Position numbers and translations under genes: made by a program
IMG/VR virus record: IMGVR_UViG_3300037400_005024
Span: 94,254 to 158,253 of that record
Direction: 5' to 3' (one strand)
Length of the DNA stretch: 64,000 bases
Source: a virus
Lineage: Duplodnaviria; Caudoviricetes
Notes under the pieces: model-generated
Databases searched by the model: none
Told to the model about the DNA's origin: nothing
What the model saw: the letters and a program-made list of their open reading frames with translations, nothing else
Shown: piece by piece, positions 16,258 through 64,000 of the stretch
Layout of the letters: the number at the start of each line of letters is the position of its first letter
How positions within the stretch are numbered: the stretch's first letter is position 1

Positions 16258-16327
16258 TGTTTTAAAAACTCCTAAATTTAAAAGTTAGATTCAAAAATTT
16301 TTGAATCTAAAAGAATGTTTAATCTAT

Positions 16328-16737: not shown

Positions 16738-16852
16738 AAATATGAATAATAGTAAATGTACTATATTGGAGAAAGTTTTGAAAAGTTGTGTTTTAAAATG
16801 AGTTAAAAAGTTTTTAAAATATGCTTTTTATATAAAGAGATGAATAAAAGTT

Positions 16853-37995: not shown

Positions 37996-38082
37996 TTTTT
38001 TTAACTATTTATAAAAATTGAGGTAAGCGTTGAAAAGTTATTAAATAAGTAAATGTACTATATTGAATTTTTGAGTTAAAAT

Positions 38083-38156
38083 AAAAAGTCCTTATAAATC
38101 AATAACTTAGTTATAGTGATATTTTAATTAAGTTATTGATTTTAAAGGACTTTCTA
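38083..38156. repeat. dispersed palindrome copy 2
   Basis: Boxes 38097-38109 and 38129-38141. Confidence 0.9.
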
Positions 38157-38182
38157 AAAATTGATTAAAAATTCCAAATTTC

Positions 38183-40376: not shown

Positions 40377-40421
40377 TTTTTACCTCAAAAAATCCCTTAA
40401 ACAAGTGGATTGTTAAATTAT

Positions 40422-41138
40422 TTAACCTTTGTACCAAGCAGGTTCATTGCCTTCAAGAGCTGAGCGTGTAAACGCACCACGCATCTTTTTAACATTTGAA
40501 ACATCCCACTTTGAAATGTCCTTATTGAATCTAGAGAACTCAAACATGCATTCCATATTCTTAACTTTTGAAACATTCCATTTTGAAATGTCTCCATTGA
40601 AAACAGAACCTGAGAACATGTTTTCCATATTTTCAACGCTTGAAACATTCCACTTTGAAATGTTACTATTGAATTTAGATCCTTTAAACATACTATCCAT
40701 ATTCTCAACTTTTGAAACATTCCACTTTGAAATATCACCATTAAAGTCAGATTTACAGAACATCCAAGACATATTTCTAACTTTTGAAACATTCCACTTT
40801 GAAATGTCACCGTTAAATTTAGATTCTGTAAACATAGCACTCATATTTTCAACTTTTGAAACATTCCACTTTGAAATGTCACCATTGAAGGGAGTACCGC
40901 CGAGCATATGATCCATATCCTTAACTTTTGAAACATCCCATTGTGAGATATCTCCATTGAATTTAGTGTTGTAGAACAAATAACTCATGTCAGTAATCTT
41001 TGAAGTGTCAATGAAGTTAAGATCACAATTAAAACCTTGCTCTTTAATTGTATCTTTGATGATCTTCATCAATTCAACCTTATTTTTAGGTTGAACTGCA
41101 GTTTTATCTGCTTCATTTAAAAAATATGTAAATTTCAT
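40422..41138 (-). CDS. DUF285/BspA-type repeat protein, 7 repeats
   Basis: Same repeat; N-terminus MKFTYFLNEA; TATAAATA at 41171-41178. Confidence 0.9.
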   Translation of the reverse strand: MKFTYFLNEADKTAVQPKNKVELMKIIKDTIKEQGFNCDLNFIDTSKITDMSYLFYNTKFNGDISQWDVSKVKDMDHMLGGTPFNGDISKWNVSKVENMSAMFTESKFNGDISKWNVSKVRNMSWMFCKSDFNGDISKWNVSKVENMDSMFKGSKFNSNISKWNVSSVENMENMFSGSVFNGDISKWNVSKVKNMECMFEFSRFNKDISKWDVSNVKKMRGAFTRSALEGNEPAWYKG

Positions 41139-42004: not shown

Positions 42005-42170
42005 TTTCTTATTCCTTTATTTAATTTGTTTTTACATATACATTATAAACCAAAATTTTTAAAATGTAAACAAATTTTTTAAATTTATTTGACGAACGTA
42101 TCAAAATTTAAAAATAAGGAATGATGAGGTCTAATGTTACTATTTAGATTTTTTAATCAATTTTAAAATT

Positions 42171-42229
42171 GTCTTTAAAATCAATAACTTAATAAAAGTA
42201 TTGTTTTAACTAAGTTATTGATTTATAAA
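42171..42229. repeat. dispersed palindrome copy 3
   Basis: Boxes 42179-42191 and 42211-42223. Confidence 0.85.
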
Positions 42230-42272
42230 ATAATTTTTAATTTCCTTTGAAAATTGTCGATTTTTGTGAAAT

Positions 42273-51513: not shown

Positions 51514-51539
51514 CTATATTGAACTTTTTCTAAAAATAA

Positions 51540-51610
51540 AAAAGCCTTTAAGAATCAATAACTTAGTTAAAGCAATACTAAAACTAAATTATTGATTTAT
51601 AAAGGCTTTT
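51540..51610. repeat. dispersed palindrome copy 4
   Basis: Boxes 51553-51565 and 51585-51597. Confidence 0.85.
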
Positions 51611-51637
51611 TAAAATTACTTAAATTTTAGAACATTT

Positions 51638-53263
51638 TTAAGAATACTCTTTCAAGATATCAGAATATAAGAAATGAATTTCTTTAGGTGTATTTTGTTT
51701 AAAATACTTTTCATTGTTAATATTCGCAATAACTTTAGTTGCAGAAATATCTTCATCTGTTCTAACTAATTCTTTAACTTTCATTCCTAGAACATTTTTT
51801 AATTGTTTTTCATAATCGGAAACTCTGTCAGAACCAGCATAAACGGCATTGATGTTGAAATCAGAGTTAGAAATAATTCTTAAAAGATTTCCATTACTTG
51901 ATTTAACAATTTGAACTTTATTACCAAACTGTTTTAGTGCAACTTCAAGCATTCTTAAACGTAGGTCTTCTGTTTTTGCAGTATCTTTAGAAGAAACTAA
52001 ACAAACTAAAACTTTATCAAATTCTTTAGTAGCTAATTTAATTAAATTAAAATGTGCTTTTGTTAAAACTCTAAATTTACCAAGAACTAAACAACCGTTA
52101 TTGCCTTTTAATGATTTTAAAATTAAAGTTTTAACATTTAATTCTATATCATCTTTAATGATTGTTTCGTTTTTCTTAGAATGGCTATAATTTAATTCAT
52201 AACGTTTTAGTAAAGAACTCATTTGAGAAAGCATATCAGAAAGTGACTTTTTCTTATCTATCTTATAGAAGATATCATAAGCACTTCCTTTTACATTTTC
52301 CCAGTACTGATTCTCTGAAGACTCATCTGACTCTTTCCATTTATTCTTAATTTCAGCTCGTTTAACCTGATCTAACTGATAATCTTGCTGAATCTTTAGA
52401 ATTTTACCATCTGAAAACTTCAGAACAACGCCTTCTTCTTTTCCTCCGAAAACAGAAGGAATTCCAAGTAATAAAGAAGATAATCTGTTATAAGTATCTG
52501 TATAATCAGAAAAATCAAAAAACTCTTTGAACTTGCTAAAAGCAATCTTCAGGTCTTTTGCTAAAATTCCTCTTTCAAACTCTTCTTTAGAACTCATAAC
52601 ACCATTGAAAATCTTCAATGGAACATTTAACTTAAGCTCTTTAGCAAAAATATCGCGTTTTGCAGTTTTCATTCCTGAATTCTTTGTTTTAAGAATTCCG
52701 AATTCGGCAGTATAAGTTGATTTAGAATATCCAATTAAAACAATTCCATGTGGTCTTTCATAATTAGAGGAAAGTGTTGGCTTTCTCATTAGATATTCTA
52801 ACTGAAGTTCTGTACCAACTGGAATTGAGGTCTTTCCTAAAGATTTAAAATGGTCTAAAACAATCTTGAATTGAGAACTGCCAATTGAAGATTTTTTAAT
52901 ATTATCATCAGAGTTATAATTAAATTCTTCAGAATATAAAATGTGACCTTTATAAGCAATTATCCAATCGGATAAATCGCCATCGTCAGCAATTTTGAGT
53001 GCAGTAACTTTAACACCATCTGTTTTTGCTTCAATTTCAACTGGAGTATTAAAGAACCACTCTAGTTTTTTACTTGAATTTAAAAACTTATTCGCAGCTA
53101 AAATTGAAATATCTAATCTGTCGCCGGATACACTTTCTGTGATAAAGTCTTCTGTTTTTAATATTTCAAGTTTTGAAAAATCTTCATTTAAATCTAATTT
53201 AAAAGAATTTAATGTATTTTTAAAAGACTTTAATTTTGAATCTACAAATTCTGAAAAACTCAT
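51638..53263 (-). CDS. ligase-like nucleotidyltransferase fused to HIGH-type cytidylyltransferase domain
   Basis: AKTDG and EEGVVLK (ligase motifs I/IV); GKFRVLTKAH, AGSDRV, ISAT (HIGH fold). Confidence 0.7.
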   Translation of the reverse strand: MSFSEFVDSKLKSFKNTLNSFKLDLNEDFSKLEILKTEDFITESVSGDRLDISILAANKFLNSSKKLEWFFNTPVEIEAKTDGVKVTALKIADDGDLSDWIIAYKGHILYSEEFNYNSDDNIKKSSIGSSQFKIVLDHFKSLGKTSIPVGTELQLEYLMRKPTLSSNYERPHGIVLIGYSKSTYTAEFGILKTKNSGMKTAKRDIFAKELKLNVPLKIFNGVMSSKEEFERGILAKDLKIAFSKFKEFFDFSDYTDTYNRLSSLLLGIPSVFGGKEEGVVLKFSDGKILKIQQDYQLDQVKRAEIKNKWKESDESSENQYWENVKGSAYDIFYKIDKKKSLSDMLSQMSSLLKRYELNYSHSKKNETIIKDDIELNVKTLILKSLKGNNGCLVLGKFRVLTKAHFNLIKLATKEFDKVLVCLVSSKDTAKTEDLRLRMLEVALKQFGNKVQIVKSSNGNLLRIISNSDFNINAVYAGSDRVSDYEKQLKNVLGMKVKELVRTDEDISATKVIANINNEKYFKQNTPKEIHFLYSDILKEYS

Positions 53264-54475
53264 TTAAAATCCTCTTTCTTCAAGAAATTCTAAGAAACTC
53301 ATTTCAAGAATTCTTGACTTACCACGTTGACCATAATCAGAATAATACTGTTTTATGAACTGTTTTGACTTATCTGATAAGCCTAATTCTTTAATGAATT
53401 TCTGATAAGCCTTTTCTTTAATTTCTCTATCAAGTTCAGGGTTTTGAACTTCTAACTCCTGAGCACGCTGAGGTTTTAATCCCCAAAGTAATTCAATGAA
53501 ACGATCATGTGTACGTTCTAAAGCTTCTCTATCAAGATGCTTTTTACATAACTTTAATAAAGAAACAAATGAATTCATTAACTTAATATCTGAAGGATTT
53601 GCTCTTGGTTTTTTAAATACTAACTTATAAATTCTATTTAGATCTGTAATGAAGTTAGATGAACCGGTTGGAATCTCTTTATAAATGAATTTATCATCTT
53701 TCATGACAATATCACCATTAGGATCTAATAGTGGTTCATATGCAATTCTAAGTCCTTTATCAACTGAGAACTTTAACATTCTAGGATTTATATTTGCTTT
53801 AGAACTTGAAATCTTGTAATTATCGTAAGTACTCTTAGAAGTTGCAATTAGAATATCATCACGTTGAGAAGATGCACCAACTAGTGCTCTTAACAGATAT
53901 TTATGAGCAACTGCTTTAATGCCTTCTAAAGCATCTTCATAAGAAGAAGAATGAGAAAACTTAGCCCAGGTTGTTGCTCTACCATTCTCAAATGGTAAGA
54001 ATTCAAAATCCATCTGAACATTTACAACTTTATCTGCAAATTTCATCGCAAATACTGCATTAATCTGAGATCCAATACTTTGAATAGTAGGCTTGTTAGA
54101 ACCCATATAGAAAACACCAGGAATAACTTCAGTATCATCGATAGAATCTAAGTAAGTCCATACGTCTTCTTTGTCTTCTTCAGGAACAGTTAAATCAACG
54201 TCACCAACTGATGATTTATACGGTAAAATGTCATCATCTGAATAATCTGTATTCATAACAAATGATGTACTGCCATTGAAAACATATGCATCATCGATTT
54301 GTGATTCATCTTCCCAGATTTTTCTACCAAATTTCTTGTAAAAACCTTTATTTAGTGCTTTTAAAGTTGCTTCAACTTTTTTAATAAAATTAGATCTTCC
54401 AATCTCTTTTAACTGAACTTTTTCTGCTCTTGTCTCTTTACCAGATTTTGAAAGAGCAGTAACGTTTCCACCCAT
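53264..54475 (-). CDS. Pol-beta-superfamily nucleotidyltransferase-like protein
   Basis: MGGNV start; GS...GDVDL and QMD acidic triad; late promoter 54511-54518. Confidence 0.6.
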   Translation of the reverse strand: MGGNVTALSKSGKETRAEKVQLKEIGRSNFIKKVEATLKALNKGFYKKFGRKIWEDESQIDDAYVFNGSTSFVMNTDYSDDDILPYKSSVGDVDLTVPEEDKEDVWTYLDSIDDTEVIPGVFYMGSNKPTIQSIGSQINAVFAMKFADKVVNVQMDFEFLPFENGRATTWAKFSHSSSYEDALEGIKAVAHKYLLRALVGASSQRDDILIATSKSTYDNYKISSSKANINPRMLKFSVDKGLRIAYEPLLDPNGDIVMKDDKFIYKEIPTGSSNFITDLNRIYKLVFKKPRANPSDIKLMNSFVSLLKLCKKHLDREALERTHDRFIELLWGLKPQRAQELEVQNPELDREIKEKAYQKFIKELGLSDKSKQFIKQYYSDYGQRGKSRILEMSFLEFLEERGF

Positions 54476-54594
54476 TGAATTCTCCAGTTTTTGTTAACTT
54501 TTACTATATCTATTTATAATCCTTTAACACCAAGTTCAAACTGAAAGCACTAAGAACGTTAAATATGTTGTATTTACATTTTCAAAAATTTTAA

Positions 54595-54660
54595 AAAAGT
54601 CTTTAAAATCAATACCTTAGTAATTTTTAACATAAGTTATTGATTCTAAAAGACTTTTTT
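54595..54660. repeat. dispersed palindrome copy 5 (13-bp spacer)
   Basis: Boxes 54607-54619 and 54633-54645. Confidence 0.85.
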
Positions 54661-54669
54661 TAAACAGTT

Positions 54670-57600
54670 TTAATAAACAAATGGAATTGTCGGAGTTGTT
54701 AAATCAAACGAATCTCGTGCTGATGTTTCTGAGTTTTTGTTTGAGTTTAAACTTGGCAAATTCAAAGGAGGTTGAGCTGATGTATTAGCGTTTTCAGCGG
54801 CTTTCGTCATTAGTATATTATCAACGTTGTTTTCGTTTATATCTTGTATTGATACATTATCTCGTTTAGTTGGAGTTACGTTAAGTATTTCATGTTTAGA
54901 ATCATCTGAACGAGCTTTAGCAAGTGTATTAGCTAATTTATCTGTATCTTTATTTAACTGTTTTATGCGTTTTTCAGCTTCATCGAATTTTCCCTCATTC
55001 CTTAACTGTATAATTGTTTGAAGTTCATCTGCTTGTCTTGCTATTTCTGTTTTAAGAGCATTTTTAGATACTTCTGGCTTTGAAATTTCAGGTTCAGGAG
55101 TATTATGTCCAAGATTTTGAACTAGCGAAACATTCTTTTCAATTTCAACAGCTTTATTCTTTTCGGCACTGATTGTTTCAATATCAACATTAGAACCGTC
55201 AAAATTATCTGAAGCAACATTTTTAGTCACCTCTGAATTTTGATAATCTGAATTAGAAGCAACACCAAGTGCTTTTGATGTTTCTTTTCTGTATCTTGCA
55301 TTTAATTGTTCTTTTAAATCAGGATCTAAAGTACTTAAACCGTTTATATAATTTGAACGTGCACTGTACAACGCTCTTACAATATCTTCTGGCGTTGACT
55401 GTGGAGAAAGTTTAGAAGCTGCAGCGTCGATAATTTTCTTATTTCCAGATAATCCGTGCTGAACTGCTTGAGACCAAAGTGCTTCTTGAACTGCTCTGTT
55501 TGTAACATTAATACCAGCGCTTTTAGCATAGTTAAACACTGGCATAAACAAGTTTTTAGAAATGCATTCATGCTGTTTCTTTAAGAATTCATTAGGATAT
55601 TGTTTAGCTAGTGAAGCCCATTCTTTCTGGAATTCTGGAGAATCTATTTCAAGTTCAGCTAATTTTCCAAACTTCGGATCACCTTTCAGAGATTCAACGA
55701 ACTTAGGAAGAATTCCTTTCTTAGAATTCATTTGCCAAGCACCGTAAGCATAACCAAAGTTATCTTTAGCTACAGTACCTGGGTTTCCTCCAGATTCAAA
55801 TTCACCTGAAACAAATCCTAAATGATCAGAAGTGTTGAATTGAATGTCTTGAGCTTTAATAGAATTAAAATCTTTAATTACATCACTTGAAATATCAGCA
55901 TGATTTGAAAAGTTTGTTGCCCAGACATTATTATATGTTTTTGAATCAATTCCTTTTTCTGAAAGTAACTCAGCTTGTCTAGTATTTGCATTTATCGAAG
56001 ACTGTAAACGTTTTGTTCCGTTTTTATTGTTCTCATACTGATTATAAACGTCTGTAGCATTGTTTTCAGCATTTGGACCTTTTAAATTTAAAATAGTATG
56101 CTTAGTTTGCTGTAATTGATCAATTGCGTCCTTAGCTCGTTTAACTGCGCCTGGATCATTGTAAATCGGAACACCCATTGAATCATAAGTAACGTCCTTT
56201 TTAGCATCTTCTAAATGTTGTCTTTCAATTTTTAATGCTTCATTGATGCTATCTAAAGAAGAAATAGTACTTTGATTTTTGTTTTGAGTTTCAGATTCTC
56301 TTCTAAATTTTATTTCAGCAATTCTATCTTTATCTAAATCTGATAAAGAATACTGTTTTTCAAGAATTTTTAAATCAGAATCAGATAATGCACTTACTTT
56401 AGCCCAATCTTTAATTTCATCTGAACCGAACATGTGAGATTCAACTACACCATCATTCTCTAAACGATTTGCACTCCATTCATCTCGTTGTTCTTGAGTT
56501 GACCCTTTTTTAATTTCTTCTTCGAGTTCAGCTAATCGGTCTGCAACCGCTTGAGCGTCTTCTTCATACTTTGCATTATCTTCATAACAAGCATTATTTA
56601 GTACTGGAAGAAGTTTAGTTGTGATGTAAGCATATTCAACTTCTGGACCTTGGTTTGTAAACTTATCAGGAATTAAATCAAGAGGGGTTTTAAACTGATC
56701 TGATAACCATTGACCAATGCTAGAACCGGCAATAGCACCAATTCCAGCACCTATAGCACCACCTACGAATGCTGCTGGAACTGCACCAATTCCAAAGAAC
56801 CAAACACCTGCTGCAGCTCCTATAGATGCACCTATTTTACCACCTAATGCAGCACCAGCAGCGGCTCCAACTGTGTTTGCAACAGCATCTTGTCTGTCTG
56901 CATCGCATTCAGCGTTAACATAATCATAAACACCTTCACCAATTGTAACTGCAGCCATTGCGGTACCAGCACCAGGCATAAAACGTGCTAAGCTTTTAGC
57001 AACTTTAGTTGGTCTAAAAGTTTTCTTTGAAATATTTTTAGCATTTTCTAAAACAGCTTTTTCTTGTTGAGGAGTAAGTTTCGCAGAATTTTTAGCACTT
57101 TCTGTTTTAGCATTCTCTGTGTTCTTTGGAGTTTCTGTTTTAGCATTCTCTGCATTTTTAGCACTTTCTGTTTTAGCATTCGCAGCATTCTGAACCTTTT
57201 CAGGTGTTTTAACCTCAGGTGTTTTAGCTTTTTCAGGTGTTTTAGCTTTTTCAGGTGTTTTAACCTCAGGTGTTTTAGCTTTTTCTATTTTAGCTTTTTC
57301 AGAATTTTCTATTTTAGCTTTTTCAGAATTTTCTATTTTAGCTTTTTCAGAATTTTCTATTTTAGCTTTTTCAGAATTTTCTATTTTAGCTTTTTCAGAA
57401 TTTTCTATTTTAGCTTTTTCAGAATTCTGAACTTTTGGAGTCTTTTTAGCTTCTGTTTCTTGTAATCTAGGTTTAGGAACTTTATTCTTTGGCTTTTTAG
57501 TAGCTTTAGAATTCTTTGGCTTATTTGGCTTCTTTGAATTCTTTGGCTTCTTTGAATTCTTTGGCTTCTTTGAATTCTTTGGCTTCTTTGGCTTTTTAGG

Positions 57601-58062
57601 TCTTCTAGGTCTTCTAGGAAGTCCTGGAGTTAAATCTAGATCAAACCCCGGACCATCAGAACTTTCTGAATCAGAATTTCCATCTCCGTAATAATTGTTT
57701 ATAATAATTGTATCAGATTTGTCTTTATGCTTGATTGAAGTATCTTGCTCATCAATCTGATTTGCTTCAATCTTTTTAAGAACAGAAAGAATATTCTTAT
57801 TAGTAATAAGTAACTTATTAAACTTTGAATCTTTTACATCTAAGTCTTCAGGTTTTAAAGCAGCATTTAAGAATGTAAAATATTTTCCGAACTCTAAAGC
57901 ATTTTTAACCTTTAAAGCTGTTGCTAACTTATTGTTTGTTCCAACAGCCTTTGGATATGTCAAAGTGTCGATGTTAGGTTCTTTTAGGTGTTTTAAACTG
58001 ACATTTGACGGAATTTTAGAAACTTTAGCTTCCTTTTTTGCGTTATCAAAGTTTTTATTCAT
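54670..58062 (-). CDS. tape-measure / baseplate-hub protein with VgrG3-like peptidoglycan hydrolase domain
   Basis: G/A-rich TM zipper; LG..S..FES.G, YGAWQ, WSQAVQHG, Y.AR, RY..E; K/P-rich tandem repeats. Confidence 0.7.
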   Translation of the reverse strand: MNKNFDNAKKEAKVSKIPSNVSLKHLKEPNIDTLTYPKAVGTNNKLATALKVKNALEFGKYFTFLNAALKPEDLDVKDSKFNKLLITNKNILSVLKKIEANQIDEQDTSIKHKDKSDTIIINNYYGDGNSDSESSDGPGFDLDLTPGLPRRPRRPKKPKKPKNSKKPKNSKKPKNSKKPNKPKNSKATKKPKNKVPKPRLQETEAKKTPKVQNSEKAKIENSEKAKIENSEKAKIENSEKAKIENSEKAKIENSEKAKIEKAKTPEVKTPEKAKTPEKAKTPEVKTPEKVQNAANAKTESAKNAENAKTETPKNTENAKTESAKNSAKLTPQQEKAVLENAKNISKKTFRPTKVAKSLARFMPGAGTAMAAVTIGEGVYDYVNAECDADRQDAVANTVGAAAGAALGGKIGASIGAAAGVWFFGIGAVPAAFVGGAIGAGIGAIAGSSIGQWLSDQFKTPLDLIPDKFTNQGPEVEYAYITTKLLPVLNNACYEDNAKYEEDAQAVADRLAELEEEIKKGSTQEQRDEWSANRLENDGVVESHMFGSDEIKDWAKVSALSDSDLKILEKQYSLSDLDKDRIAEIKFRRESETQNKNQSTISSLDSINEALKIERQHLEDAKKDVTYDSMGVPIYNDPGAVKRAKDAIDQLQQTKHTILNLKGPNAENNATDVYNQYENNKNGTKRLQSSINANTRQAELLSEKGIDSKTYNNVWATNFSNHADISSDVIKDFNSIKAQDIQFNTSDHLGFVSGEFESGGNPGTVAKDNFGYAYGAWQMNSKKGILPKFVESLKGDPKFGKLAELEIDSPEFQKEWASLAKQYPNEFLKKQHECISKNLFMPVFNYAKSAGINVTNRAVQEALWSQAVQHGLSGNKKIIDAAASKLSPQSTPEDIVRALYSARSNYINGLSTLDPDLKEQLNARYRKETSKALGVASNSDYQNSEVTKNVASDNFDGSNVDIETISAEKNKAVEIEKNVSLVQNLGHNTPEPEISKPEVSKNALKTEIARQADELQTIIQLRNEGKFDEAEKRIKQLNKDTDKLANTLAKARSDDSKHEILNVTPTKRDNVSIQDINENNVDNILMTKAAENANTSAQPPLNLPSLNSNKNSETSARDSFDLTTPTIPFVY
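57283..57426 (-). repeat. 6 x 24-bp perfect tandem repeat (NSEKAKIE)
   Basis: TTCTATTTTAGCTTTTTCAGAATT x6; adjacent 15-bp and 18-bp (57524-57590) repeats. Confidence 0.95.
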
Positions 58063-58064
58063 AA

Positions 58065-58787
58065 TTATCTTCTAATCTTTTTAACTGCTTCGTTGTGCTT
58101 TTCAACTGATTCATTATATAAAGAACTAAAAATTACTCTTTCAAATGGTAATAATGAATCTATATCTTGTTTAGACCATTTTCCAGTAAAAATAAGATTT
58201 TCGTAAAAGTTATAAATTGATTCAATAGTAGATTCAGATAAAGATGAAATAACCATTTTATTAGAATTCAAATCTATATATGATTCATGCGCACATGCCA
58301 AACACTTAAATTTTCTAATAAAATTATTTGTAGTTTGATACTTTGAAATGTTTTCATAGATATTTTCATAAGTATCAATATCTAAATCTTCATAATTTAT
58401 TAAAAAGTTATTCTGAAAATCTTCCTCATTTTCTGGAAGTCGTTTTAAATCTCTGACAAAATCTGATTTTAACTCAGCTTTGTTAACAATGTTTGTTATA
58501 CTAATTTCAGTTTCAATTGGCATTCCGCAAGCTGGACAAACACATTGTATTGCAAAATTTTCATCAACTGAAACTTCTCTATATTTGTAGAGTAAAATTA
58601 CTTTCTCATCGTGAGATAGTTTAGAATATAGCTTACTATCTACTTTTAAAATATCCAGAGCTGCATCTAGAATATCATCGTTGTATTCTGGATAATATGT
58701 GTCCAAGAAAAGTAACTCTTTTTCTTGAGCAACTGTATAGGGTTCTATTTTAATTGTATATCCAAAATCTTTAAATGGTATTTTCAT
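58065..58787 (-). CDS. baseplate hub assembly protein (gp26/gp51-like)
   Basis: PYTV..EK.L, CPAC, C..C, WS...ID.L.PFER. Confidence 0.75.
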   Translation of the reverse strand: MKIPFKDFGYTIKIEPYTVAQEKELLFLDTYYPEYNDDILDAALDILKVDSKLYSKLSHDEKVILLYKYREVSVDENFAIQCVCPACGMPIETEISITNIVNKAELKSDFVRDLKRLPENEEDFQNNFLINYEDLDIDTYENIYENISKYQTTNNFIRKFKCLACAHESYIDLNSNKMVISSLSESTIESIYNFYENLIFTGKWSKQDIDSLLPFERVIFSSLYNESVEKHNEAVKKIRR

Positions 58788-59569
58788 TAGATACCACCGA
58801 TATTAAACCATGACTTAGGATAAAAATTATCAACATTCTTAAAATCAAAACGATCTTCATAATCACAATCAGGACAAGTACAATAACCGATTGTATTATA
58901 TGAAAATCTCATTGAATTCCATTGTTTAAAAATGTCTTCAAATGTTTCAATATCCATTGAATCAAAAATTTTAATCAATTCTTCAGCACTAAAATCAATT
59001 CTTGAATTAAATTCTGTAATATGTAAAATAAAATCAATAAGAATTTTTTGCTCATTATCGGTTATATTCATAATCATATTTTCATAAAATTCTTGATTTT
59101 TAATATTACCCACTTTAATTGAATAATTTCCAGATTTAATTTCTGAGTACTTTCTATCATTCTTTTCAAGAATATCAGAAAAATGAACATTACAATTGTA
59201 AACAGTTCCGCAATTAGGACATGTTACAACATACTTAGTAACGTAATTTGGAAGACTTTTATTTCTGATATTAAATAAAACATACTCATATTCTAAATAA
59301 TCAAGTGCTTCTTTAGGATTTTCTAAGCAATTAAAAACTAGTGCTTTCTTTTTATCATAATTTGTTTTAGCTTTTATCAGATTTTCTTTATCTTTAACTT
59401 TCCAAGTTCTGAATTTTATTTTTCGTCCTTGAAGTTCTAATTCATATGGAAATTCTTGAGACTTTGGAATATTTTTAACTGTTTTATCTGTTTTGTTTGT
59501 TTCTGTTTTCTTAACTTCTGATAAAGTCTGAATTTCAGATAAATTTATTTTAGATGTGTCAATTGCCAT
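58787..59569 (-). CDS. baseplate hub protein (gp26-like)
   Basis: KIKFR.W.VK, IR.KS, CPNC, CPDC. Confidence 0.75.
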   Translation of the reverse strand: MAIDTSKINLSEIQTLSEVKKTETNKTDKTVKNIPKSQEFPYELELQGRKIKFRTWKVKDKENLIKAKTNYDKKKALVFNCLENPKEALDYLEYEYVLFNIRNKSLPNYVTKYVVTCPNCGTVYNCNVHFSDILEKNDRKYSEIKSGNYSIKVGNIKNQEFYENMIMNITDNEQKILIDFILHITEFNSRIDFSAEELIKIFDSMDIETFEDIFKQWNSMRFSYNTIGYCTCPDCDYEDRFDFKNVDNFYPKSWFNIGGI

Positions 59570-59581
59570 GTATATATCCTC

Positions 59582-60106
59582 TTATAATGCGGCTGAAGCA
59601 TATTTAGTAGCAGTCATTTCAACATCAAACTCTACAATTTGAGCTTCTGTTTCATTAGAAAATTGAACCTGAGAAACACTGTCAATTAAACATTTTTCGA
59701 ATGTTGCTATAACAATATCAGATTCGTTTAAATAATCTGCTTTTTTAATTACTTTTACCGTTAGAAAAGAATCTTCCGGATAAGTGATTTTTTGAGCAGC
59801 GTACAGAATTGAAAATGCTCTGTACATTTTCATCTGGTCAAAATCTCTAACAGTAAATGAAAATGTTAAAAGATTAGGCTTGCCTACAGCTCTCATGTAA
59901 TTATCTGCGACAAATGTCTCGATAACGTCATGCGATAATTGAGGCATATTAAAATTTTTAATTGATAATTTGCAATCTTTAAATGGTATTTTATATTTTG
60001 AAACTTTTGAAACTGCATCTTTACCAATTGCATTTATTTCTATTTCAAAATTGTTAACTTGTGACCATTTAGTTTTGTAAATTTTAGAAACTAAATCTGA
60101 TAACAT
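59582..60106 (-). CDS. third gp19-fold (gp48/gp54-like) tube protein
   Basis: N.FEI, MP, FSFT, QFS...QIVEFDV; late promoter. Confidence 0.65.
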   Translation of the reverse strand: MLSDLVSKIYKTKWSQVNNFEIEINAIGKDAVSKVSKYKIPFKDCKLSIKNFNMPQLSHDVIETFVADNYMRAVGKPNLLTFSFTVRDFDQMKMYRAFSILYAAQKITYPEDSFLTVKVIKKADYLNESDIVIATFEKCLIDSVSQVQFSNETEAQIVEFDVEMTATKYASAAL

Positions 60107-60181
60107 ATCAAAAATATTTTTAATCTATCTATTTATAAAAAATCTTTAATCCTTTAATGTTTATAAATAAATATAAAAAAT

Positions 60182-60616
60182 ATGATAGACTTAAATGCAC
60201 TTAAACGGTATACAGAGTTACAACAAGAGCAATTTAAAGAAAGTATTTTTAATATCGCAAGTATAACGGAAGTTATAGGAGTTATGGGTATGTCTGATAT
60301 TGTAGAAAAAGGTGATGGTTATATAAGATTTGAAAATGGAATTCAAATTTGCTTCGGTGAATTTAACATCACTGGTTCTTGGAATGAACAAAATAACCAG
60401 GTCATTAATGAAAATATAATATTTTCTAAAGAATTTATTAACAAACCTATTGTCACAGCAAATAACAATGGTACCGGTGGTTGGTGGTCGTCTTCTGCAC
60501 TTAATATAACAAATTCTAATTTTGATTTTAGTTTAGGTTTAACACATAATTCACATAGCCATACAGGTACAACAATGTGCCAATATTTTGCATTTGGTTT
60601 TTGGAAAGAAATTTAA
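60182..60616 (+). CDS. tail-fibre tip-like protein (gp53-like C-terminal / H-lectin-like domain)
   Basis: GYIRFENGIQICFG, IIF...F...P.V, YFA.G.WK. Confidence 0.7.
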   Translation: MIDLNALKRYTELQQEQFKESIFNIASITEVIGVMGMSDIVEKGDGYIRFENGIQICFGEFNITGSWNEQNNQVINENIIFSKEFINKPIVTANNNGTGGWWSSSALNITNSNFDFSLGLTHNSHSHTGTTMCQYFAFGFWKEI

Positions 60617-60619
60617 ACA

Positions 60620-61288
60620 ATGATAGACTTAAATGCACTGAATTTATACAAAAATAAAATAAGTTCATACGTTGATGATTCAATGCCATTGCCTAGTCCT
60701 AAAGATGTTTTAATTCTAAATGATGAATTGATTGATAACTATACAGGTAATGGAATTACGCCTTATGGTAGTGTAAAAATTGATGAAAACAGCATTGCAA
60801 GTGGATTTTCAAATAGTTCTAATATTATCTTAACAAGTTTAAATTGTATGTCTCTCAATGACGGATTTGAACTTCAGGTAAAAGCAAATAATAATGTAAA
60901 TTCACAAACAATATTTTGCGAGTCAACATTGAATGGTGATTCTAACATTTGTTTCTACGTAGCACTAGGCAACCGCGATACTGACATAGGATCTTACTAT
61001 AACGGATATGTTCATGCTGTCAGGTTTTCTTTCGATACTATTCCTGACAAAATGCACTATTTTAGGTATAAGTATTTGAATGATACTATTTATTTCAAAC
61101 TTTTAGACGAAAATATGAACGTTTTATTTGAACAAAGTGCATCAATGCACATTCAATTTAGAAATAGAACGTTTATGTTTGGTAGAAATATGAGTAATGA
61201 GTATCAATCTCCTTATATATCAATAGATCTTTCTGAAACCTGGTTCAAAGATAAAGACGGAAATTTAATTTCAAGTTGGAATAAATAA
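60620..61288 (+). CDS. putative carbohydrate-binding tail accessory protein
   Basis: Shares MIDLNAL N-terminus with ORF 60182; beta-rich ConA-like composition. Confidence 0.5.
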   Translation: MIDLNALNLYKNKISSYVDDSMPLPSPKDVLILNDELIDNYTGNGITPYGSVKIDENSIASGFSNSSNIILTSLNCMSLNDGFELQVKANNNVNSQTIFCESTLNGDSNICFYVALGNRDTDIGSYYNGYVHAVRFSFDTIPDKMHYFRYKYLNDTIYFKLLDENMNVLFEQSASMHIQFRNRTFMFGRNMSNEYQSPYISIDLSETWFKDKDGNLISSWNK

Positions 61289-61297
61289 TATACGACA

Positions 61298-61326
61298 AAA
61301 AAGAGAACTTTTTCAAGTTCTCTTTT
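61298..61326. terminator. bidirectional terminator between tail genes and flagellin
   Basis: AAAAGAGAACTT-TTTC-AAGTTCTCTTTT. Confidence 0.75.
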
Positions 61327-61347
61327 AAAATTATGTTTAACTAAATT

Positions 61348-62235
61348 TTAACCAGAAATTAAACTTAGTGCTAACTGTCCTCTTACATTACCTTGAGTTA
61401 ACATTGCAGCTGCCATTTGCTGAATAATGTTTTGAGCAGTTAGATTTGCTGCTTCCTCAGCATAATCTGTATCTCTAATTTTTGATCTAGCTTCTGTTTC
61501 GTTTTCAACAATGTTTTCTTGATTAGAAATTGTAGATTCTAAACGATTTTGAACAGCACCTAACTGACCTCTAGAAGCATCAACTGAAGCAATAAATTTA
61601 TCAATATTAGCTAAAGTAGTTTGAGCAGATTGTGCAGATGAAACAGAGAATGATTTAATTCCATCATGAACGATTAAAGCTGCAGATCCAACATTACTGT
61701 GGCTTGAAATTCCGTCAATTGAAAATCCTGCTGATAAAGATACTGAAATTGTATCGTTAGCGTTAGCACCAACTTGGAATGTTACTTTACCATCAGCACC
61801 AACTAAACCATTTCCAGCACCAGCTAAAATTTTCTGTCCAGCGAATGTTGTTTTACATGAAATTCTTGTGATCTCTGAACAAAGTTGGTCAACTTGACTT
61901 TGAATTGCTATTCTTTCAGCTGAAGTGTTAGTTCCAGTAGCTGCCTGGTTAGCTAAAGTTCTAATTTTCTGAAGCATTTCAGTTGTTTCGTCTAAAGCAC
62001 CTTCAACAGTTTGAGAGAATGCTAAACCAGTTGCAGCGTTCTTATTTCCTTGTTTTAATCCTTCAATCTGAGAAGTTAAACGATTAGAAATTTGTAAACC
62101 CGCTGAGTCGTCCTTGGCTGAGTTGATTCGAAGACCTGATGATAATCTTTTATAGATAGTATCTAACTTATTATTTGATTTGTTTAAATAACGATTTGAA
62201 TTTAAAACTGAAGTATTGGTAATTGCTGAAATCAT
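61348..62235 (-). CDS. fliC: flagellin (short, D0/D1 core)
   Basis: RLSSGLRINSAKDDSAGLQI, QTVEGAL, FQVGAN, R..LGAVQNRL, S.IRDTDYAEE. Confidence 0.96.
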   Translation of the reverse strand: MISAITNTSVLNSNRYLNKSNNKLDTIYKRLSSGLRINSAKDDSAGLQISNRLTSQIEGLKQGNKNAATGLAFSQTVEGALDETTEMLQKIRTLANQAATGTNTSAERIAIQSQVDQLCSEITRISCKTTFAGQKILAGAGNGLVGADGKVTFQVGANANDTISVSLSAGFSIDGISSHSNVGSAALIVHDGIKSFSVSSAQSAQTTLANIDKFIASVDASRGQLGAVQNRLESTISNQENIVENETEARSKIRDTDYAEEAANLTAQNIIQQMAAAMLTQGNVRGQLALSLISG

Positions 62236-62272
62236 AATTTTACCTCACTAAAATACATGTTTCTTATATATA

Positions 62273-62299
62273 TTATTGACATTTTTTAGAAAAAGTTTA
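62273..62299 (-). promoter_or_regulatory. sigma28 (FliA)-like promoter of the flagellin gene
   Basis: TAAACTTT-N11-GTCAATAA versus consensus TAAAGTTT-N11-GCCGATAA; GAGG SD downstream. Confidence 0.65.
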
Positions 62300-62366
62300 A
62301 TAAAAATTTCAAAAAGTTTTTGGACATCAAATGGTGAATAACTATTTAGCTTTTAAGATGAAATTT

Positions 62367-62439
62367 AAAAAGTTCTTTAAAATCAATTACTTAGATACAG
62401 TATTATTTTAAATAAGTTATTGATTTATAATGACTTTTT
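62367..62439. repeat. dispersed palindrome copy 6
   Basis: Boxes 62381-62393 and 62413-62425. Confidence 0.85.
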
Positions 62440-62485
62440 AAAATTGATTAAATTTTTTACCAGTTTTACTATTTTTGAAATTCAA

Positions 62486-62584
62486 TTAAATTCCTGCGAA
62501 CTGACAGTAAAGGTTAAACAACATGTAGGCAATGATACCGAACAAAATTGAATAACATAGTGCATTGATTAAAAAAACTTTCAT
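62486..62584 (-). CDS. 32-aa membrane peptide
   Basis: MKVFLINALCYSILFGIIAYMLFNLYCQFAGI; AAGGA SD. Confidence 0.5.
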   Translation of the reverse strand: MKVFLINALCYSILFGIIAYMLFNLYCQFAGI

Positions 62585-62638
62585 ATTGATGTCCTTTAAA
62601 CCTCATTAGAACCATCTTTCAGATTACTTTGACATGGT

Positions 62639-63022
62639 TTATTCGTTAACTTCTACAAGTTCAATCATAACGTGATCAGTACCACGAACATCGAAAATAC
62701 CCTTAACCTTGCCAAACTTATAATGAGTACCATTTAACTGTTCCATTGCCTTTTTATTTGTCTGACATCCTGATTTATTCACTGTCTTTTTGAGAGATGG
62801 AACAATAGTTCCAACCCATTCGTCATCTTTATTAACTCTTTCGTACTTTAGAACACATTCAACCAGTGCAGTATTTTGAGAATTTATAATAGTTGAAGAA
62901 ACTGTACTTGCCATAGTTTTTGCAGAAAATTGTGAGTGACTATGTGGTACAATAAATGCACTGTGAGCAGTTAAAACGTTAGCGGCTAACATCAATCCTA
63001 AAACTAAATTACGTACTTTCAT
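62639..63022 (-). CDS. early secreted/periplasmic protein
   Basis: Signal-peptide-like MKVRNLVLGLMLAANVLTAHSA; early promoter 63068-63097. Confidence 0.7.
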   Translation of the reverse strand: MKVRNLVLGLMLAANVLTAHSAFIVPHSHSQFSAKTMASTVSSTIINSQNTALVECVLKYERVNKDDEWVGTIVPSLKKTVNKSGCQTNKKAMEQLNGTHYKFGKVKGIFDVRGTDHVMIELVEVNE

Positions 63023-63156
63023 ATTACTTTCCTTTGATTCTTTTTAATAATTTGTTTTTACAATATCATTATAAACCAAATTTTAGAGAATGTAAACTAT
63101 TTTTTAAAAAAATTTTTAATTTTTTTTTTATAAATATAGATAAAATTGGTGTTTAT

Positions 63157-63624
63157 ATGTTTGCAAAAAGAAACGAAACTATTGGTATTTTTAATGCCAT
63201 TCCACAAGGTTGGACAGAAATTTCAGAAGCAGAATACATCACTTTAAGAAATACTCCAAGTGTTGAGGTTCAAAGGGAATTTAAACTTAAAGAACTCAAA
63301 GACTGTGTAAACCGTTTAAAGGGAAACACTTCTGAAATGTATATCACTTCATCTTTAGGATTTAAGGTAAACGCTGACACAAATTCACTTGAAAATGTTA
63401 ATACTTTGATTGACTTAAATGCTAACATTTTTAGGGATTTTGATAATGAAATTCACAAGGTTTCACTTGATGATTTAAAAATCATTAAGTCAGAAATTCA
63501 GCAAAATGCCGTAAATCTGTATCATCAAAAATGGAAATACGAGGAAATCATCAAAAATGCTTCAATTTCCGAATTAAAGGAATTAAAGTTAAATTTTGAA
63601 ATGCTTGATTTCACACAGAGGTAA
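63157..63624 (+). CDS. DUF4376-like tail-fibre assembly protein
   Basis: True start likely 63157 (MFAKR) after TATAAATA at 63129; SSLGF.VNAD...N, FRDFDN, LY.QKW. Confidence 0.7.
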   Translation: MFAKRNETIGIFNAIPQGWTEISEAEYITLRNTPSVEVQREFKLKELKDCVNRLKGNTSEMYITSSLGFKVNADTNSLENVNTLIDLNANIFRDFDNEIHKVSLDDLKIIKSEIQQNAVNLYHQKWKYEEIIKNASISELKELKLNFEMLDFTQR

Positions 63625-63627
63625 TAC

Positions 63628-64000
63628 ATGCCTTTATCTTTAAACGCACTTAAAACTTATAAAGAGGTTTTAGAAGACTATTTAATCCAAATTGCAACCA
63701 AGGGAGATATTGAAAATCTTATGGCAACAGATGGCAAAGTTAATCATTTAGAAATTGTAAACGGTGTTTGTAAAATAGACACTGATTTACCTTCATACGT
63801 TTATTACGTTGAGACAGAAGGAAATTTCAAGTTTGAAATTACCAAAAATCCAAGTATTGAAAACAAGAAAATCACATTATTTGTATTATGTAAAGGTACA
63901 AACTCAAATAACTATGTTCAATTCCCAATTAATGTAAGAGGTGTTAAGAACAATGTTATTAATTATAGCAACCAAAAGAATTTTATTCACAAGTTCGATT
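63628..64000 (+). CDS. partial tail accessory protein
   Basis: MPLSLNALKTY... open to the window end; shares LNAL..Y motif with ORFs 60182 and 60620. Confidence 0.6.
   Translation, partial: MPLSLNALKTYKEVLEDYLIQIATKGDIENLMATDGKVNHLEIVNGVCKIDTDLPSYVYYVETEGNFKFEITKNPSIENKKITLFVLCKGTNSNNYVQFPINVRGVKNNVINYSNQKNFIHKFD

Follow-up and report, generated by a model that had tools for sequence, protein, structure and literature searches.

A flagellin gene behind a sigma28-like promoter in a virulent T4-like phage of Succinivibrio

Introduction

Flagellins encoded by phages have so far been known from temperate phages, where the benefits fall to the lysogen and comprise motility, lower TLR5 activation, and gut engraftment (PMC13418256). 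The Enterobacter "flagellar remodelling" phage FRphi encodes the flagellin FliC_P together with the RNA-guided repressor TldR (10.1101/2023.11.30.569447, PMC13418256). Its prophage gene fliC_P was reported to recruit host FliA/sigma28, with the product being built into host filaments (10.1101/2023.11.30.569447).

Here, we describe a flagellin gene within 64,000 nucleotides of viral DNA (the window; positions 94,254 to 158,253 of IMG/VR record IMGVR_UViG_3300037400_005024). As in FRphi, the product is a phage-borne full-length flagellin in which D0/D1 are conserved and the exposed middle part is divergent. The settings differ, however, as FRphi is a temperate siphovirus, whereas the present genome is T4-like and lacks integrase and resolvase genes. 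No nuclease-dead TnpB lies beside the flagellin, the present host has about 10 flagellin genes compared to one in the FRphi host, and any silencing of host flagellin would come from general host shut-off and not from a guide RNA. The carrier is a virulent-type T4-like phage, in contrast to the temperate carriers known so far, and any benefit therefore has to be gained within a single lytic cycle or at progeny level.

A second point of comparison is cyanophage psbA, a host-derived auxiliary gene of T4-like phages that replaces a fast-turnover host part. Both psbA and the present flagellin gene are host structural genes that purifying selection maintains in virulent T4-like phages, and both show signs of intragenic exchange between phage and host. 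Unlike psbA, which supports energy supply and is expressed with phage genes, the gene described here specifies a part of the flagellar filament, and its promoter looks less like a phage promoter than like one read by a host alternative sigma factor.

Results

The flagellin gene belongs to a complete T4-like phage genome

The record represents a closed 158-kb genome (111-bp terminal repeat; CheckV, 100%), in which the flagellin is located at 155.6 kb. An independent Logan contig of 1504 bp spans positions 61210-62713 of the window with 0 differences and at a depth equal to that of the flanks. With a closed genome and a Logan contig bridging both flanks, no chimeric junction was found. Fourteen contigs with a wholly or partly phage-type flagellin were examined (L002-L005, L010, L011, and L090-L097), with the hybrid contigs L009, L112, and L113 counted apart. 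T4-like phage genes, or neighbors common to such contigs, stand beside the flagellin in 14/14, and bacterial genes in none.

The T4-like core of the genome includes T4_baseplate (twice), a gp5-like spike (gp5/PAAR), a baseplate wedge, the major head protein, DNA polymerase, topoisomerase II, and ligase. The late promoter motif TATAAATA has 62 copies in the genome, 37 of which lie within 80 nt upstream of genes, a 13-fold enrichment (39 sites within 100 nt upstream). A profile search of the complete genome returned no match to Phage_integrase or Resolvase. Core genes, late promoters, and the lack of integrase and resolvase bear out a preliminary description of this DNA as a virulent-type T4-like myovirus; its further suggestion of a carrier-state lifestyle was not supported, as nothing in the genome analysis points that way. 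Sigma70_r2, Sigma70_r4, FliS, and FlgM gave no match in the genome at E values up to 0.1, a search that could miss very small FlgM-like peptides.

Searches for related phages among reference records were conducted with DNA and protein. Megablast of positions 54000-64000 returned nothing, and tblastn of the flagellin gave matches of at most 47% identity, many of them in short or unannotated records. A scan of viral contigs with the baseplate-hub protein found no relative. When 20 kb of the window was compared with 98 genomes of the host family, no clear CRISPR spacer was found; repeat-module homology appeared at window ~40.0-41.1 kb, along with a few matches of 28-30 nt, of which at least one (97% identity) lies inside the dispersed palindrome described below.

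A full-length flagellin of Succinivibrio descent under purifying selection

61348-62235, minus strand: flagellin gene, 295 aa (P0001), from the open ORF and its translation

P0001 consists of D0/D1 termini and a short variable middle (approximately residues 141-205). Pfam profiles matched both ends, with Flagellin_N (PF00669, 1.5e-33) covering residues 6-140 at profile positions 3-137 of 139 and Flagellin_C (PF00700, 2.6e-18) covering residues 208-293 at positions 1-86 of 86; the PHROG match was phrog_16088. Residues 3-293 are collinear with the 271-304-aa flagellins of solved filaments (PDB matches down to 6.5e-56). In length, the protein falls in the class of Succinivibrio flagellins (293-303 aa), and 118 columns are invariant in the alignment. 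The ORF, the two Pfam matches, and the alignment with filament flagellins confirm the earlier reading of an intact flagellin with both termini. The first 10 residues are unlike those of every host paralogue compared (MISAITN versus host MA(I/L)YVNTN), as is the C-terminal tail; the protein retains a FliS-binding C-terminal region and an export-signal region, each with phage-specific changes. Judged by its sequence, P0001 would be exported by the flagellar type III system and polymerized into the filament; given the terminal differences from host paralogues, unchanged export and packing are an assumption.

Related phage contigs from many samples contain ~80 protein clusters with 83-97% identity to the flagellin, found in cattle and pig gut runs from 12 studies. 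Among phage flagellin copies, dN/dS was 0.09-0.19 overall, lower in the termini (0.04-0.16) than in the middle (0.2-0.7), and dS reached 0.98. GC3 of the flagellin is 0.15-0.21 and matches the phage (mean, 0.21), with host flagellins at 0.21-0.41. The flagellin gene is old in these phages and has long been under purifying selection.

In phylogenetic analysis, the phage flagellin clade (SH-aLRT 99) nests inside Succinivibrio flagellins. Identity to host flagellins is 67-69%, with a best value of ~69%, and the best named relatives are Succinivibrio faecicola and Succinivibrio sp. The Succinivibrionaceae-like origin proposed earlier is therefore correct, and neither near-identity to a host gene nor neutral decay was found. 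We conclude that the phage is a virulent T4-like phage of Succinivibrio from the cattle and pig gut. Other flagellins, preceded by canonical sigma-28 motifs, occur in two T4-like contigs that are more distantly related. The flagellins of this second T4-like lineage group with rumen Aeromonadales, and a single origin of phage flagellins was rejected (AU test, p = 9e-5).

In three hybrid contigs (L009, L112, and L113), phage-type sequence is joined inside the flagellin gene to Succinivibrio chromosomal DNA, with phage DNA on one side, chromosome on the other, and flagellin halves that are phage-type and host-type, respectively. A phage-type stretch is therefore no proof of phage context, and these contigs indicate either that mis-assembly at the flagellin gene occurs or that real recombinants exist. 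A candidate closest host flagellin, P0080 (74%), was rejected, as it comes from hybrid contig L009. Host-type patches also occur inside the flagellins of L010 and L011; the window copy is phage-type along its whole length.

The gene forms an insulated cassette among baseplate-hub and small tail-protein genes

59582-60106, minus strand: 174-aa tail-tube-like gene, first of the baseplate-hub/spike block, with its own late promoter at 60130-60137
60182-61288, plus strand: pair of late genes for small tail proteins (144 and 222 aa), antisense to the flagellin, with a late promoter at 60162-60169
61299-61326, no strand assigned: bidirectional intrinsic terminator common to the flagellin gene (minus) and the 222-aa gene (plus), from folding
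62243-62246, minus strand: Shine-Dalgarno sequence GAGG, 7 nt before the ATG, read from the sequence
62367-62439, no strand assigned: terminator-like palindromic repeat of ~73 bp, upstream insulator of the cassette, from copies, alignment, and folding
62486-62584, minus strand: gene for a 32-aa hydrophobic peptide with an AAGGA Shine-Dalgarno sequence, upstream of the flagellin on the same strand, from translation
62639-63022, minus strand: 127-aa gene whose product has a signal-peptide-like N terminus, from translation
63068-63096, minus strand: sigma70-like promoter TTTACA-17-TATAAT (11/12 match) heading the 127-aa gene, ~830 nt upstream of the flagellin

The flagellin is a host-derived, insulated single-gene accessory cassette made up of palindromic terminator-like repeat, promoter, gene, and terminator. 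The terminator and the GAGG sequence assigned to the gene in the preliminary description were both recovered. The terminator has a 12-bp stem, a GAAA loop, and a U-run (dG -13.9, z -3.2); in L003, L004, and L011, an identical stem lies 3' of the flagellin and is followed directly by the TATAAATAG late promoter of the next gene. A purine-rich Shine-Dalgarno sequence is retained in all phage relatives compared. At the other end, the ~73-bp palindrome is one of at least 10 dispersed intergenic copies; it is A/T-rich and only moderately stable (z -2.06) and stands between the sigma70-like promoter and the flagellin, which are on the same strand. Contigs of other strains diverge or join exactly at 62430-62447, and strains differ upstream of the palindrome while the flagellin promoter stays. 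A copy of the palindrome is also found upstream of the flagellin in L002.

The surroundings had been described as a tail-fiber region with the flagellin placed antisense within it, which proved wrong. The flagellin shares its strand with the tail-tube-like, baseplate-hub, and spike genes, a block that runs on to 54670, and with the 127-aa gene, whose product had no family match in Pfam or PHROG. Only the two small tail-protein genes are antisense to it. Both of their products have an N-terminal MIDLNAL..Y motif, and the 144-aa product matches phrog_2712 (tail-fiber C terminus); the region as a whole is one of baseplate hub and small tail proteins, not a classical tail-fiber operon. In many relatives, the flagellin is located among baseplate and spike genes, and a 175-aa homologue of the tail-tube-like gene comes directly after it; in L003 and L011, the 144- and 222-aa genes are missing between the two. 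The position of the flagellin is variable, differing in L002, L010, L105, and L106.

Phage "moron"-type accessory cassettes likewise have their own promoter and terminator between genes of another transcription class and vary in position among relatives. Promoter-early stem-loop (PeSL) cassettes, in work attributed to Arbiol et al. in 2010, reportedly shuffle accessory genes in T4-type phages. As in PeSL cassettes, a dispersed intergenic stem-loop repeat here marks the limits of accessory genes and lies where the mosaics of different strains break. Unlike them, the repeat is a long palindrome of ~73 bp, and an early promoter inside it could not be demonstrated.

A conserved sigma28-like promoter precedes the flagellin gene

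62273-62299, minus strand: sigma28-like promoter TAAACTTT-N11-GTCAATAA, 38-64 nt upstream of the ATG
62292-62299, minus strand: -35 block TAAACTTT, followed by the 11-nt spacer
62273-62280, minus strand: -10 block GTCAATAA of the sigma28-like promoter

Compared to the E. coli FliA consensus (TAAAGTTT-N11-GCCGATAA), the site matches at 13/16 positions with the right spacing. The count of such motifs alone is not significant, because sites with at most three mismatches were observed once in the 64-kb window against 1.06 expected. This sole site, however, is on the coding strand and no more than 64 nt from the start of the flagellin, a placement for which our own rough estimate of chance is ~1e-3. 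A looser pattern fitted to the flagellin-promoter site has one occurrence in the 158-kb genome. Support for the promoter therefore rests on position and on conservation in relatives. The columns TTAAA.TTTTT and G.C.ATA are invariant in nine phage copies, while spacer and leader vary, and both blocks remain so even in the one of the nine that is only 53% identical in protein.

The -10 block differs among lineages and from that of the host. The canonical form TAAACTTT-N11-GCCGATAT is present in L011 and L105, a host-type TAAAGTTT-N11-AACGTTAA in L106, and GCCTATAT forms the -10 block in L003 and L004. The CG(A/T) core of the -10 is thus present in L011, L105, and L106 and absent from the window site and L003/L004; it never varies in the host promoters gathered for comparison. 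Host flagellin promoters of Succinivibrionaceae read TAAAG-N14/15-G(C/T/A)CG(T/A)TAA, and the fourth base of the -10 is G in 16/16 of those in our matrix set as well as in the Aeromonadaceae promoters seen. In sum, the window site shares with class 3 FliA/sigma28 flagellin promoters the two blocks, their spacing, and the place in front of a flagellin gene; its lineage departs from them in the -35, where the fifth base is C instead of G, and in the -10, where A replaces the invariant G. When the phage was scanned with a matrix built from the 16 Succinivibrionaceae flagellin promoters, the window site was not among the 12 best scores, and no phage site reached host scores; the top phage scores (at most 14) were at or below the maxima of most shuffled genomes. 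The phage therefore has no set of host-grade sigma28 promoters.

An A/T-rich stretch, TATATATAAG, directly follows the -10 block, reading TATAAT in some relatives, and another holoenzyme could use it as a weak -10. Both strands are free of the T4-type late promoter TATAAATA from 60170 to 63128, the neighbors' sites being the two listed above and 63129-63136 (plus). In relatives, a terminator and then a late promoter stand between the flagellin and the next gene. Of the earlier account, a retained sigma28-type promoter holds as far as blocks, spacing, conservation, and the canonical form in some relatives are concerned, with the qualification that the -10 in the window lacks the host-invariant G. 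Its observation that no phage early or late promoter lies directly upstream stands for TATAAATA and carries the caveat of the sigma70-like promoter on the same strand. The sigma28-like promoter would, we infer, depend on FliA.

RNA contigs cover the flagellin ORF

RNA contigs from two RNA libraries cover the flagellin ORF. One, a 901-nt contig from a bovine-gut cDNA library, comprises just this ORF (62243 to ~61343) at ~90% identity, compared to at most 80% for host flagellin genes. These contigs carry no information on strand, ends, or level, may include DNA carry-over, and leave uncovered parts uninformative; their start at 62243, downstream of the predicted transcription start, is to be read accordingly.

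TnpB-family genes lie far from the flagellin

Three TnpB-family genes are present at 6.4-7.6, 15.3-16.5, and 124.0-124.6 kb of the genome, all far from the flagellin. The full-length copy, T1, retains the D-E-D residues as read from its translation. Guide-like flanks of TnpB ends and mini-elements gave no match to the host flagellin loci compared, and words shared between phage DNA and host flagellin promoters, leaders, and first codons were A/T-rich and at chance level. TldR-like control of host flagellin was rejected on these grounds, as no TldR-like repressor near the flagellin and no matching guide were found. In relatives, TnpB-end mini-elements adjoin the flagellin (L002, 11153-11470; L095 and L096, just 3' of the stop). 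One 20-mer in L090 and L095 matches a host -35 region.

Discussion

The virus probably feeds its own subunits into the host flagellum during lytic infection. That it does so by means of a host-derived cassette transcribed through host FliA, with the product added to the host filament in the course of a virulent T4-like infection, is a proposal to which we give an even chance. The flagellin is not wired into the phage late (gp55-type, TATAAATA) program; under this proposal, its transcription would most likely be carried out by host RNA polymerase with FliA, active only in cells with working flagellar basal bodies. Because no FliS, FlgM, or sigma70-family sigma factor was found in the phage, the product would need the host FliS chaperone and the flagellar type III export gate. 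Growing host filaments would then take up phage subunits beneath their cap, beside the ~10 host flagellin paralogues. These subunits differ from the host's in the exposed middle part, and the infected cell would go on building filament after host gene shut-off. The benefit may be sustained motility or a surface changed against other phages or antibodies. Within a lytic cycle, only the growing filament tip would change.

The protein could meet the same fate if its gene were transcribed as an ordinary early or middle gene, by read-through from the sigma70-like promoter or from the A/T-rich -10, with the sigma28-like blocks a relic of the host gene once captured or a chance likeness; we regard this as unlikely. 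It draws on the 11/12 match of TTTACA-17-TATAAT on the same strand, on a palindrome that may leak, being A/T-rich and only moderately stable, on the missing host-invariant G and poor host-matrix score of the window site, and on several relatives with a perfect TATAAT 3 nt after the -10 block. In L010, moreover, the flagellin follows a 46-aa ORF by 13 nt and has no sigma28-like motif. A relic would have decayed, however, whereas the blocks are canonical in L011 and L105 and invariant at fixed spacing although spacer, leader, and third coding positions have diverged to the dS values given above. No -35 hexamer fits the TATAAT, and it is the region beyond the palindrome that varies between strains while the promoter stays. 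A different fate for the protein, as an intracellular regulator or decoy that binds FliS or loads the export gate and, by altering FlgM secretion, FliA activity, or export, switches motility or energy use, has an outside chance. The altered FliS-binding and export-signal regions and a phage without its own FliS would suit such a role; yet purifying selection extends across the whole of D0 and D1 and not only the chaperone-binding tail, the middle part evolves fast, as do surface-exposed parts of filament flagellins, and the host-type patches tolerated in L010 and L011 fit a subunit compatible with host filaments.

Proximity to tail-tube-like, baseplate-hub, gp5/PAAR, and small tail-protein genes, here and in many relatives, raises the thought of a flagellin-derived fiber or decoration made with the tail. 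A place in the virion is nonetheless very improbable, as the flagellin lacks the exact TATAAATA late promoter found at late genes, is set apart from the tail genes by a terminator and a fresh late promoter, and is not fixed in position. Its identity to host flagellins and the host patches are unexpected for a specialized virion protein, and flagellin normally polymerizes only at the tip of an exported filament. That the linkage is an artefact, with host DNA mis-joined into a phage contig, or that the gene is a recent dead passenger, we consider scarcely credible. The three hybrid contigs demonstrate joins of just this kind between phage-type and host-type halves; the window copy, in contrast, is phage-type throughout, is bridged by a second assembler at even depth, and lies in a closed genome. 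The flagellin also recurs with phage genes on both sides in many samples and combines phage-like GC3 with purifying selection.

A broader reading can be put forward only tentatively, and we are inclined to doubt that it holds: virulent T4-like phages that infect motile gut anaerobes may have turned to flagellin carriage repeatedly as a strategy, plugging the gene into the host sigma-28 regulon, with lytically infected cells building phage-type filament and phage and host copies exchanging segments by recombination. Flagellin carriage has at least two origins among the Succinivibrionaceae/Aeromonadales phages concerned here. If this reading is true, T4-like phages would be users and movers of Succinivibrio flagellin surface diversity, and the hybrids L009, L112, and L113 together with the host-type patches of L010 and L011 would be traces of phage-host exchange.

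For a virulent-type carrier, candidate benefits are that the infected cell is kept motile after host shut-off, that the filament surface is changed against competing flagellum-binding phages or gut antibodies, and that progeny are spared from sticking to doomed cells. If the promoter is truly FliA dependent, a T4-like phage would be sensing the state of its host through one of the host's alternative sigma factors, in addition to running its own late system. Phage flagellins, and contigs in which phage and host are joined, can be mis-binned as bacterial or give false phage-host links, a risk for annotation. Succinivibrio ranks among the major gut taxa of livestock and of non-industrial human populations, and phage flagellins may form a sizeable, unrecognized pool of flagellin variants in gut metagenomes.

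An intact flagellin gene in a T4-like phage

The 158,253-bp IMG/VR virus record, of which the window forms the final 64 kb, carries a 111-bp direct repeat at its ends (CheckV completeness, 100%) and has a G+C content of 29%. T4-like tail genes (two T4_baseplate hub proteins, a gp5/VgrG-like spike, a tail-tube-like protein, and a baseplate wedge) were detected, as were T4-like head and replication genes (major head protein, DNA polymerase, topoisomerase II large subunit, and DNA ligase). Ahead of genes, the octamer TATAAATA typical of T4 late promoters is 13-fold enriched: of 62 copies in the genome, 37 fall in the 80 nt before a start, and a limit of 100 nt takes in 39 sites. No integrase or resolvase was found in the phage genome. 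The phage is T4-like and not temperate.

Features of the flagellin locus (window coordinates)
60130-60137 (-), 60162-60169 (+), 63129-63136 (+): exact TATAAATA copies of neighbouring genes
60182-60616 and 60620-61288 (+): two small late tail-protein genes, antisense to the flagellin
61299-61326: 12-bp hairpin and U-run after the flagellin stop codon (dG -13.9, z -3.2)
61348-62235 (-): flagellin ORF, 295 aa (Flagellin_N 1.5e-33, Flagellin_C 2.6e-18)
7 nt ahead of the flagellin ATG (-): GAGG, read from the sequence
62273-62299 (-): TAAACTTT-N11-GTCAATAA, upstream of the flagellin
62486-62584 (-): gene for a 32-aa hydrophobic peptide, upstream of the flagellin
Upstream of the flagellin (-): 127-aa gene with a signal-peptide-like N-terminus
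63096-63068 (-): strong sigma70-like promoter TTTACA-17-TATAAT, heading the 127-aa gene and the 32-aa gene
63628-64000: tail-protein gene running on past the record's end (product, 439 aa)

From end to end, the 295-aa protein aligns with flagellins whose filaments have been solved, and TATAAATA is absent upstream of its gene. The ORF, Pfam matches, and TATAAATA check confirmed the preliminary description of an intact flagellin with a promoter-like motif, its own terminator, and no late promoter. Its interpretation stood in part: a phage gene in a T4-like, non-temperate phage, with a likely FliA-type promoter, but not antisense within a tail-fibre region, as the flagellin shares its strand with the tail-tube-like, hub, and spike genes and only the two small plus-strand genes are antisense. 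The cassette lies amid late tail-protein genes whose products (from 60182-60616, 60620-61288, and the gene starting at 63628) have a common N-terminal (M)xxLNAL..Y motif and unrelated C-termini. One such protein matches a tail-fibre C-terminus, and the set possibly represents alternative receptor-binding tips. A Sequestin (PF21825) gene stands directly upstream of the cassette in many relatives and is missing there in the window; 58- to 73-aa genes with this match were seen in contigs L090 (7487-7702), L092 (7483-7704), and L095 (4687-4863).

In the run that best covers the stretch, one Logan contig spans 61210-62713 with zero differences, at a depth (15.7) similar to that of flanking contigs (13.4 and 15.1); the chimeric junction considered earlier was not seen. 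A protein search returned ~80 clusters at 83-97% identity to the window flagellin. Apart from the three hybrid contigs described below, 14 contigs with a wholly or partly phage-type flagellin were examined (L002-L005, L010, L011, and L090-L097); in all 14, from many samples, T4-like phage genes, or neighbours common to such contigs, adjoin it. Typical gene orders were RtcB, flagellin, 175-aa tube-like, and two T4_baseplate genes, or RtcB ... Sequestin-like, flagellin, gp5_OB, PAAR, and 175-aa genes. The stretch was found in cattle and pig gut runs from 12 studies. Given the bridging contig, the clusters, the phage contexts, and these runs, the flagellin is a real part of the phage.

Origin, selection, and exchange with the host

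After the phage clusters, the next-best proteins were chromosomal Succinivibrio flagellins, one NCBI-named and others on a bacterial contig of 180 kb that carries multiple paralogues; they reached just 67-69% identity, not the near-identity to a host gene that had been kept in view. The best species-representative genomes were Succinivibrio faecicola and Succinivibrio sp. MAGs, with 10-14 flagellin matches each. In the maximum-likelihood tree, all phage-context flagellins grouped together in a single clade (SH-aLRT 99) that lies within Succinivibrio, and the protein search and phylogeny thereby bore out the suggested Succinivibrionaceae origin. Protein P0080 (74% identity, "host") derives from hybrid contig L009 and is no clean host reference. 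dN/dS among phage copies was 0.09-0.19 (termini, 0.04-0.16; middle, 0.2-0.7), which argues against neutral decay; dS among them reached 0.98 and was saturated between phage and host. GC3 was 0.15-0.21 in phage copies, in line with the phage mean (0.21) and no higher than in host flagellins (0.21-0.41). Judged by its sequence, the flagellin is an old phage gene under selection and not a recent passenger.

Two further T4-like viral contigs, L105 and L106, have distant homologues in common with the window phage, and their flagellins cluster with sequences from Aeromonadales MAGs of the rumen (SH-aLRT 99), apart from the window's clade. An AU test run without the long-branched L106 rejected a single clade of the window's clade and L105 (p = 9e-5); phages therefore took up a flagellin on two or more occasions, or else the current host's gene overwrote copies already resident. 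Phage genes adjoin the flagellin in L010 (both sides) and L011, and codons ~31-100 of these copies are 80-84% identical to host genes versus 66-72% to other phage copies. Hybrids inside the gene occurred in three contigs, with differing cross-over points and both polarities. In L009, phage RtcB, the phage promoter, and codons 1-125 of phage type give way to a 3' end of host type and to host prs-ispE-lolB; L112 has a phage promoter and phage-type residues 1-260, then a host-type tail with a flank nearly identical to S. faecicola; L113 runs from a host sigma54-type promoter and host-type N-terminus into phage-type sequence and gp5/PAAR. These three may be genuine recombinants between phage and host or else chimeras of assembly; for the internal host-type patches of L010 and L011, chimerism is harder to hold.

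A repeated module in the genes at ~40000-41100 of the window also occurs in many genomes of the Succinivibrionaceae, at 65-72% nucleotide identity and with several tandem matches per genome. This module, perhaps another host-like sequence besides the flagellin, agrees with the host assignment.

A probable mobile cassette and its promoter

A ~73-bp palindromic repeat (62367-62439) stands between the 32-aa and 127-aa genes and the flagellin promoter.

Copies of the palindromic repeat
Window: 62367-62439, 16653-16749, 38061-38169, 42139-42253, 51517-51647, 54562-54672
G000 (the complete record): 5720-5830, 30745-30870, 67100-67200, 89290-89410

With its core AAAAAGTCCTTTAAAATCAATAACTTAG ... CTAAGTTATTGATTTATAAGGACTTTTT, the repeat occupies at least 10 intergenic sites, often adjoins a TAATGTACTAT(A)TT motif, and looks like a bidirectional terminator. 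Sequence breaks between strains fall at such repeats, a pattern that recalls the PeSL cassettes of T4-type phages. L002 also has a copy ahead of its flagellin, with flanking genes that map to quite different G000 regions. Contigs of other strains split at 62444-62447 into three different sequences, and in one strain variant (run X1) 62430 is joined to 63055, the stretch with the 127-aa and 32-aa genes being absent or replaced. The location of the flagellin module varies among relatives. Together with the gene's terminator, the upstream repeat and break points define a module of repeat, promoter, gene, and terminator that is probably a mobile cassette.

The sole window match to the E. coli FliA consensus at up to three mismatches (1 found versus 1.06 expected per 64 kb) stands 38-64 nt ahead of the flagellin ATG. 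By number alone, such a match is what chance would give, which counsels caution over the motif. A matrix derived from 16 Succinivibrionaceae flagellin promoters placed this site outside the best 12 phage sites and gave no phage site a host-level score; the low score arises because the -35 block has C for G at its fifth base and the -10 has A where all collected host promoters carry G. All nine aligned phage copies agree in the columns TTAAA.TTTTT and G.C.ATA and differ in spacer and leader. The textbook form TAAACTTT-N11-GCCGATAT is found in L011 and in L105, a distant relative at 53% protein identity, and L106 has the host form TAAAGTTT-N11-AACGTTAA. No Sigma70_r2/r4 sigma factor, FliS, or FlgM was detected in the phage. 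Based on these forms, the invariant blocks, the position before the ATG, and the lack of such phage factors, a FliA-type promoter is the most likely reading and a reasonably probable one; the lineage of the window phage would have it in weakened or retuned form. Its chief rival is transcription that reads through from the sigma70-like promoter farther upstream.

Host flagellin leaders were observed in L006 (9880-10000), L007 (8800-8920 and 9880-10000), L008 (1-87), and L012 and L014 (upstream of 2983). S. faecicola-like paralogues have in common a conserved leader whose hairpin (GCTCATAAATTGAGC) comes immediately ahead of a GGGAG ribosome-binding site; this leader is missing from phage copies. 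Further host paralogues have sigma54-type TGGCAC-N5-TT promoters, and the host seems to divide its flagellins between sigma54 and sigma28. Vibrio flagellins are likewise split between the two.

Comparison with a TldR-associated flagellin

The closest published system is that of FRphi, a temperate Enterobacter phage in which FliC_P is reported to use host FliA and TldR to repress host fliC (10.1101/2023.11.30.569447). A phage flagellin and a sigma28-type promoter are common to both phages. Unlike FRphi, the present phage is not temperate and has no TldR beside the flagellin, and its full-length TnpB, read from translation, looks catalytically intact. Guide-like TnpB flanks gave no match to host flagellin promoters among the collected loci. 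A TldR-fliC_P module was rejected on these four grounds.

TnpB-family genes (three, one truncated)
G000 6380-7561 (-)
G000 15263-16495 (-)
Window 29783-30379 (+)

TnpB-end or omega-RNA-like mini-elements lie directly 3' of the flagellin, in opposite orientations, in L002 (11153-11470) and L095 (~6020-6100); no link between such elements and flagellin control was found. In L090 (16053) and L095 (13673), 20 nt within a 67-aa ORF (AAAAAAATATTAAAGAATTA) are identical to sequence in the -35 region of one host flagellin promoter; the match is A/T-rich and may be due to chance. Full-text literature searches returned no paper describing a virulent phage with a flagellin or a flagellin from any Succinivibrio phage.

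Expression and proposed role

A bovine-gut cDNA library yielded a 901-nt contig over the ORF alone (62243 to ~61343), ~90% identical to the window with a diverged middle, and in a second RNA library three contigs, all shorter, map to the ORF. No 30-codon window of a host gene exceeds 80% identity; these contigs are therefore of phage type. They lend weak support to expression, as DNA carry-over is possible and contigs do not give strand, ends, or amount.

Several accounts of the gene were weighed. Ordinary early transcription, with the same fate for the protein, would suit the strong sigma70-like promoter and leave the invariant FliA-like blocks aside; we consider it unlikely. A role inside the cell as decoy or regulator is more doubtful still, and incorporation into the virion, for a gene amid late tail-protein genes yet without TATAAATA, is slightly less probable again. 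Least credible, and very unlikely, is an artefact, against which the bridging contig stands.

We instead favour, with about even confidence, FliA-driven expression of a phage flagellin that joins the host filament during infection. The cassette would be transcribed by host RNA polymerase with FliA, and its product would be handled by host FliS and the flagellar export gate and added to the growing filament. Production of filament, partly of phage type, would then go on in infected cells after host shut-off. The gain may be sustained motility or an altered surface, and the fast-evolving middle part of the protein is compatible with both.
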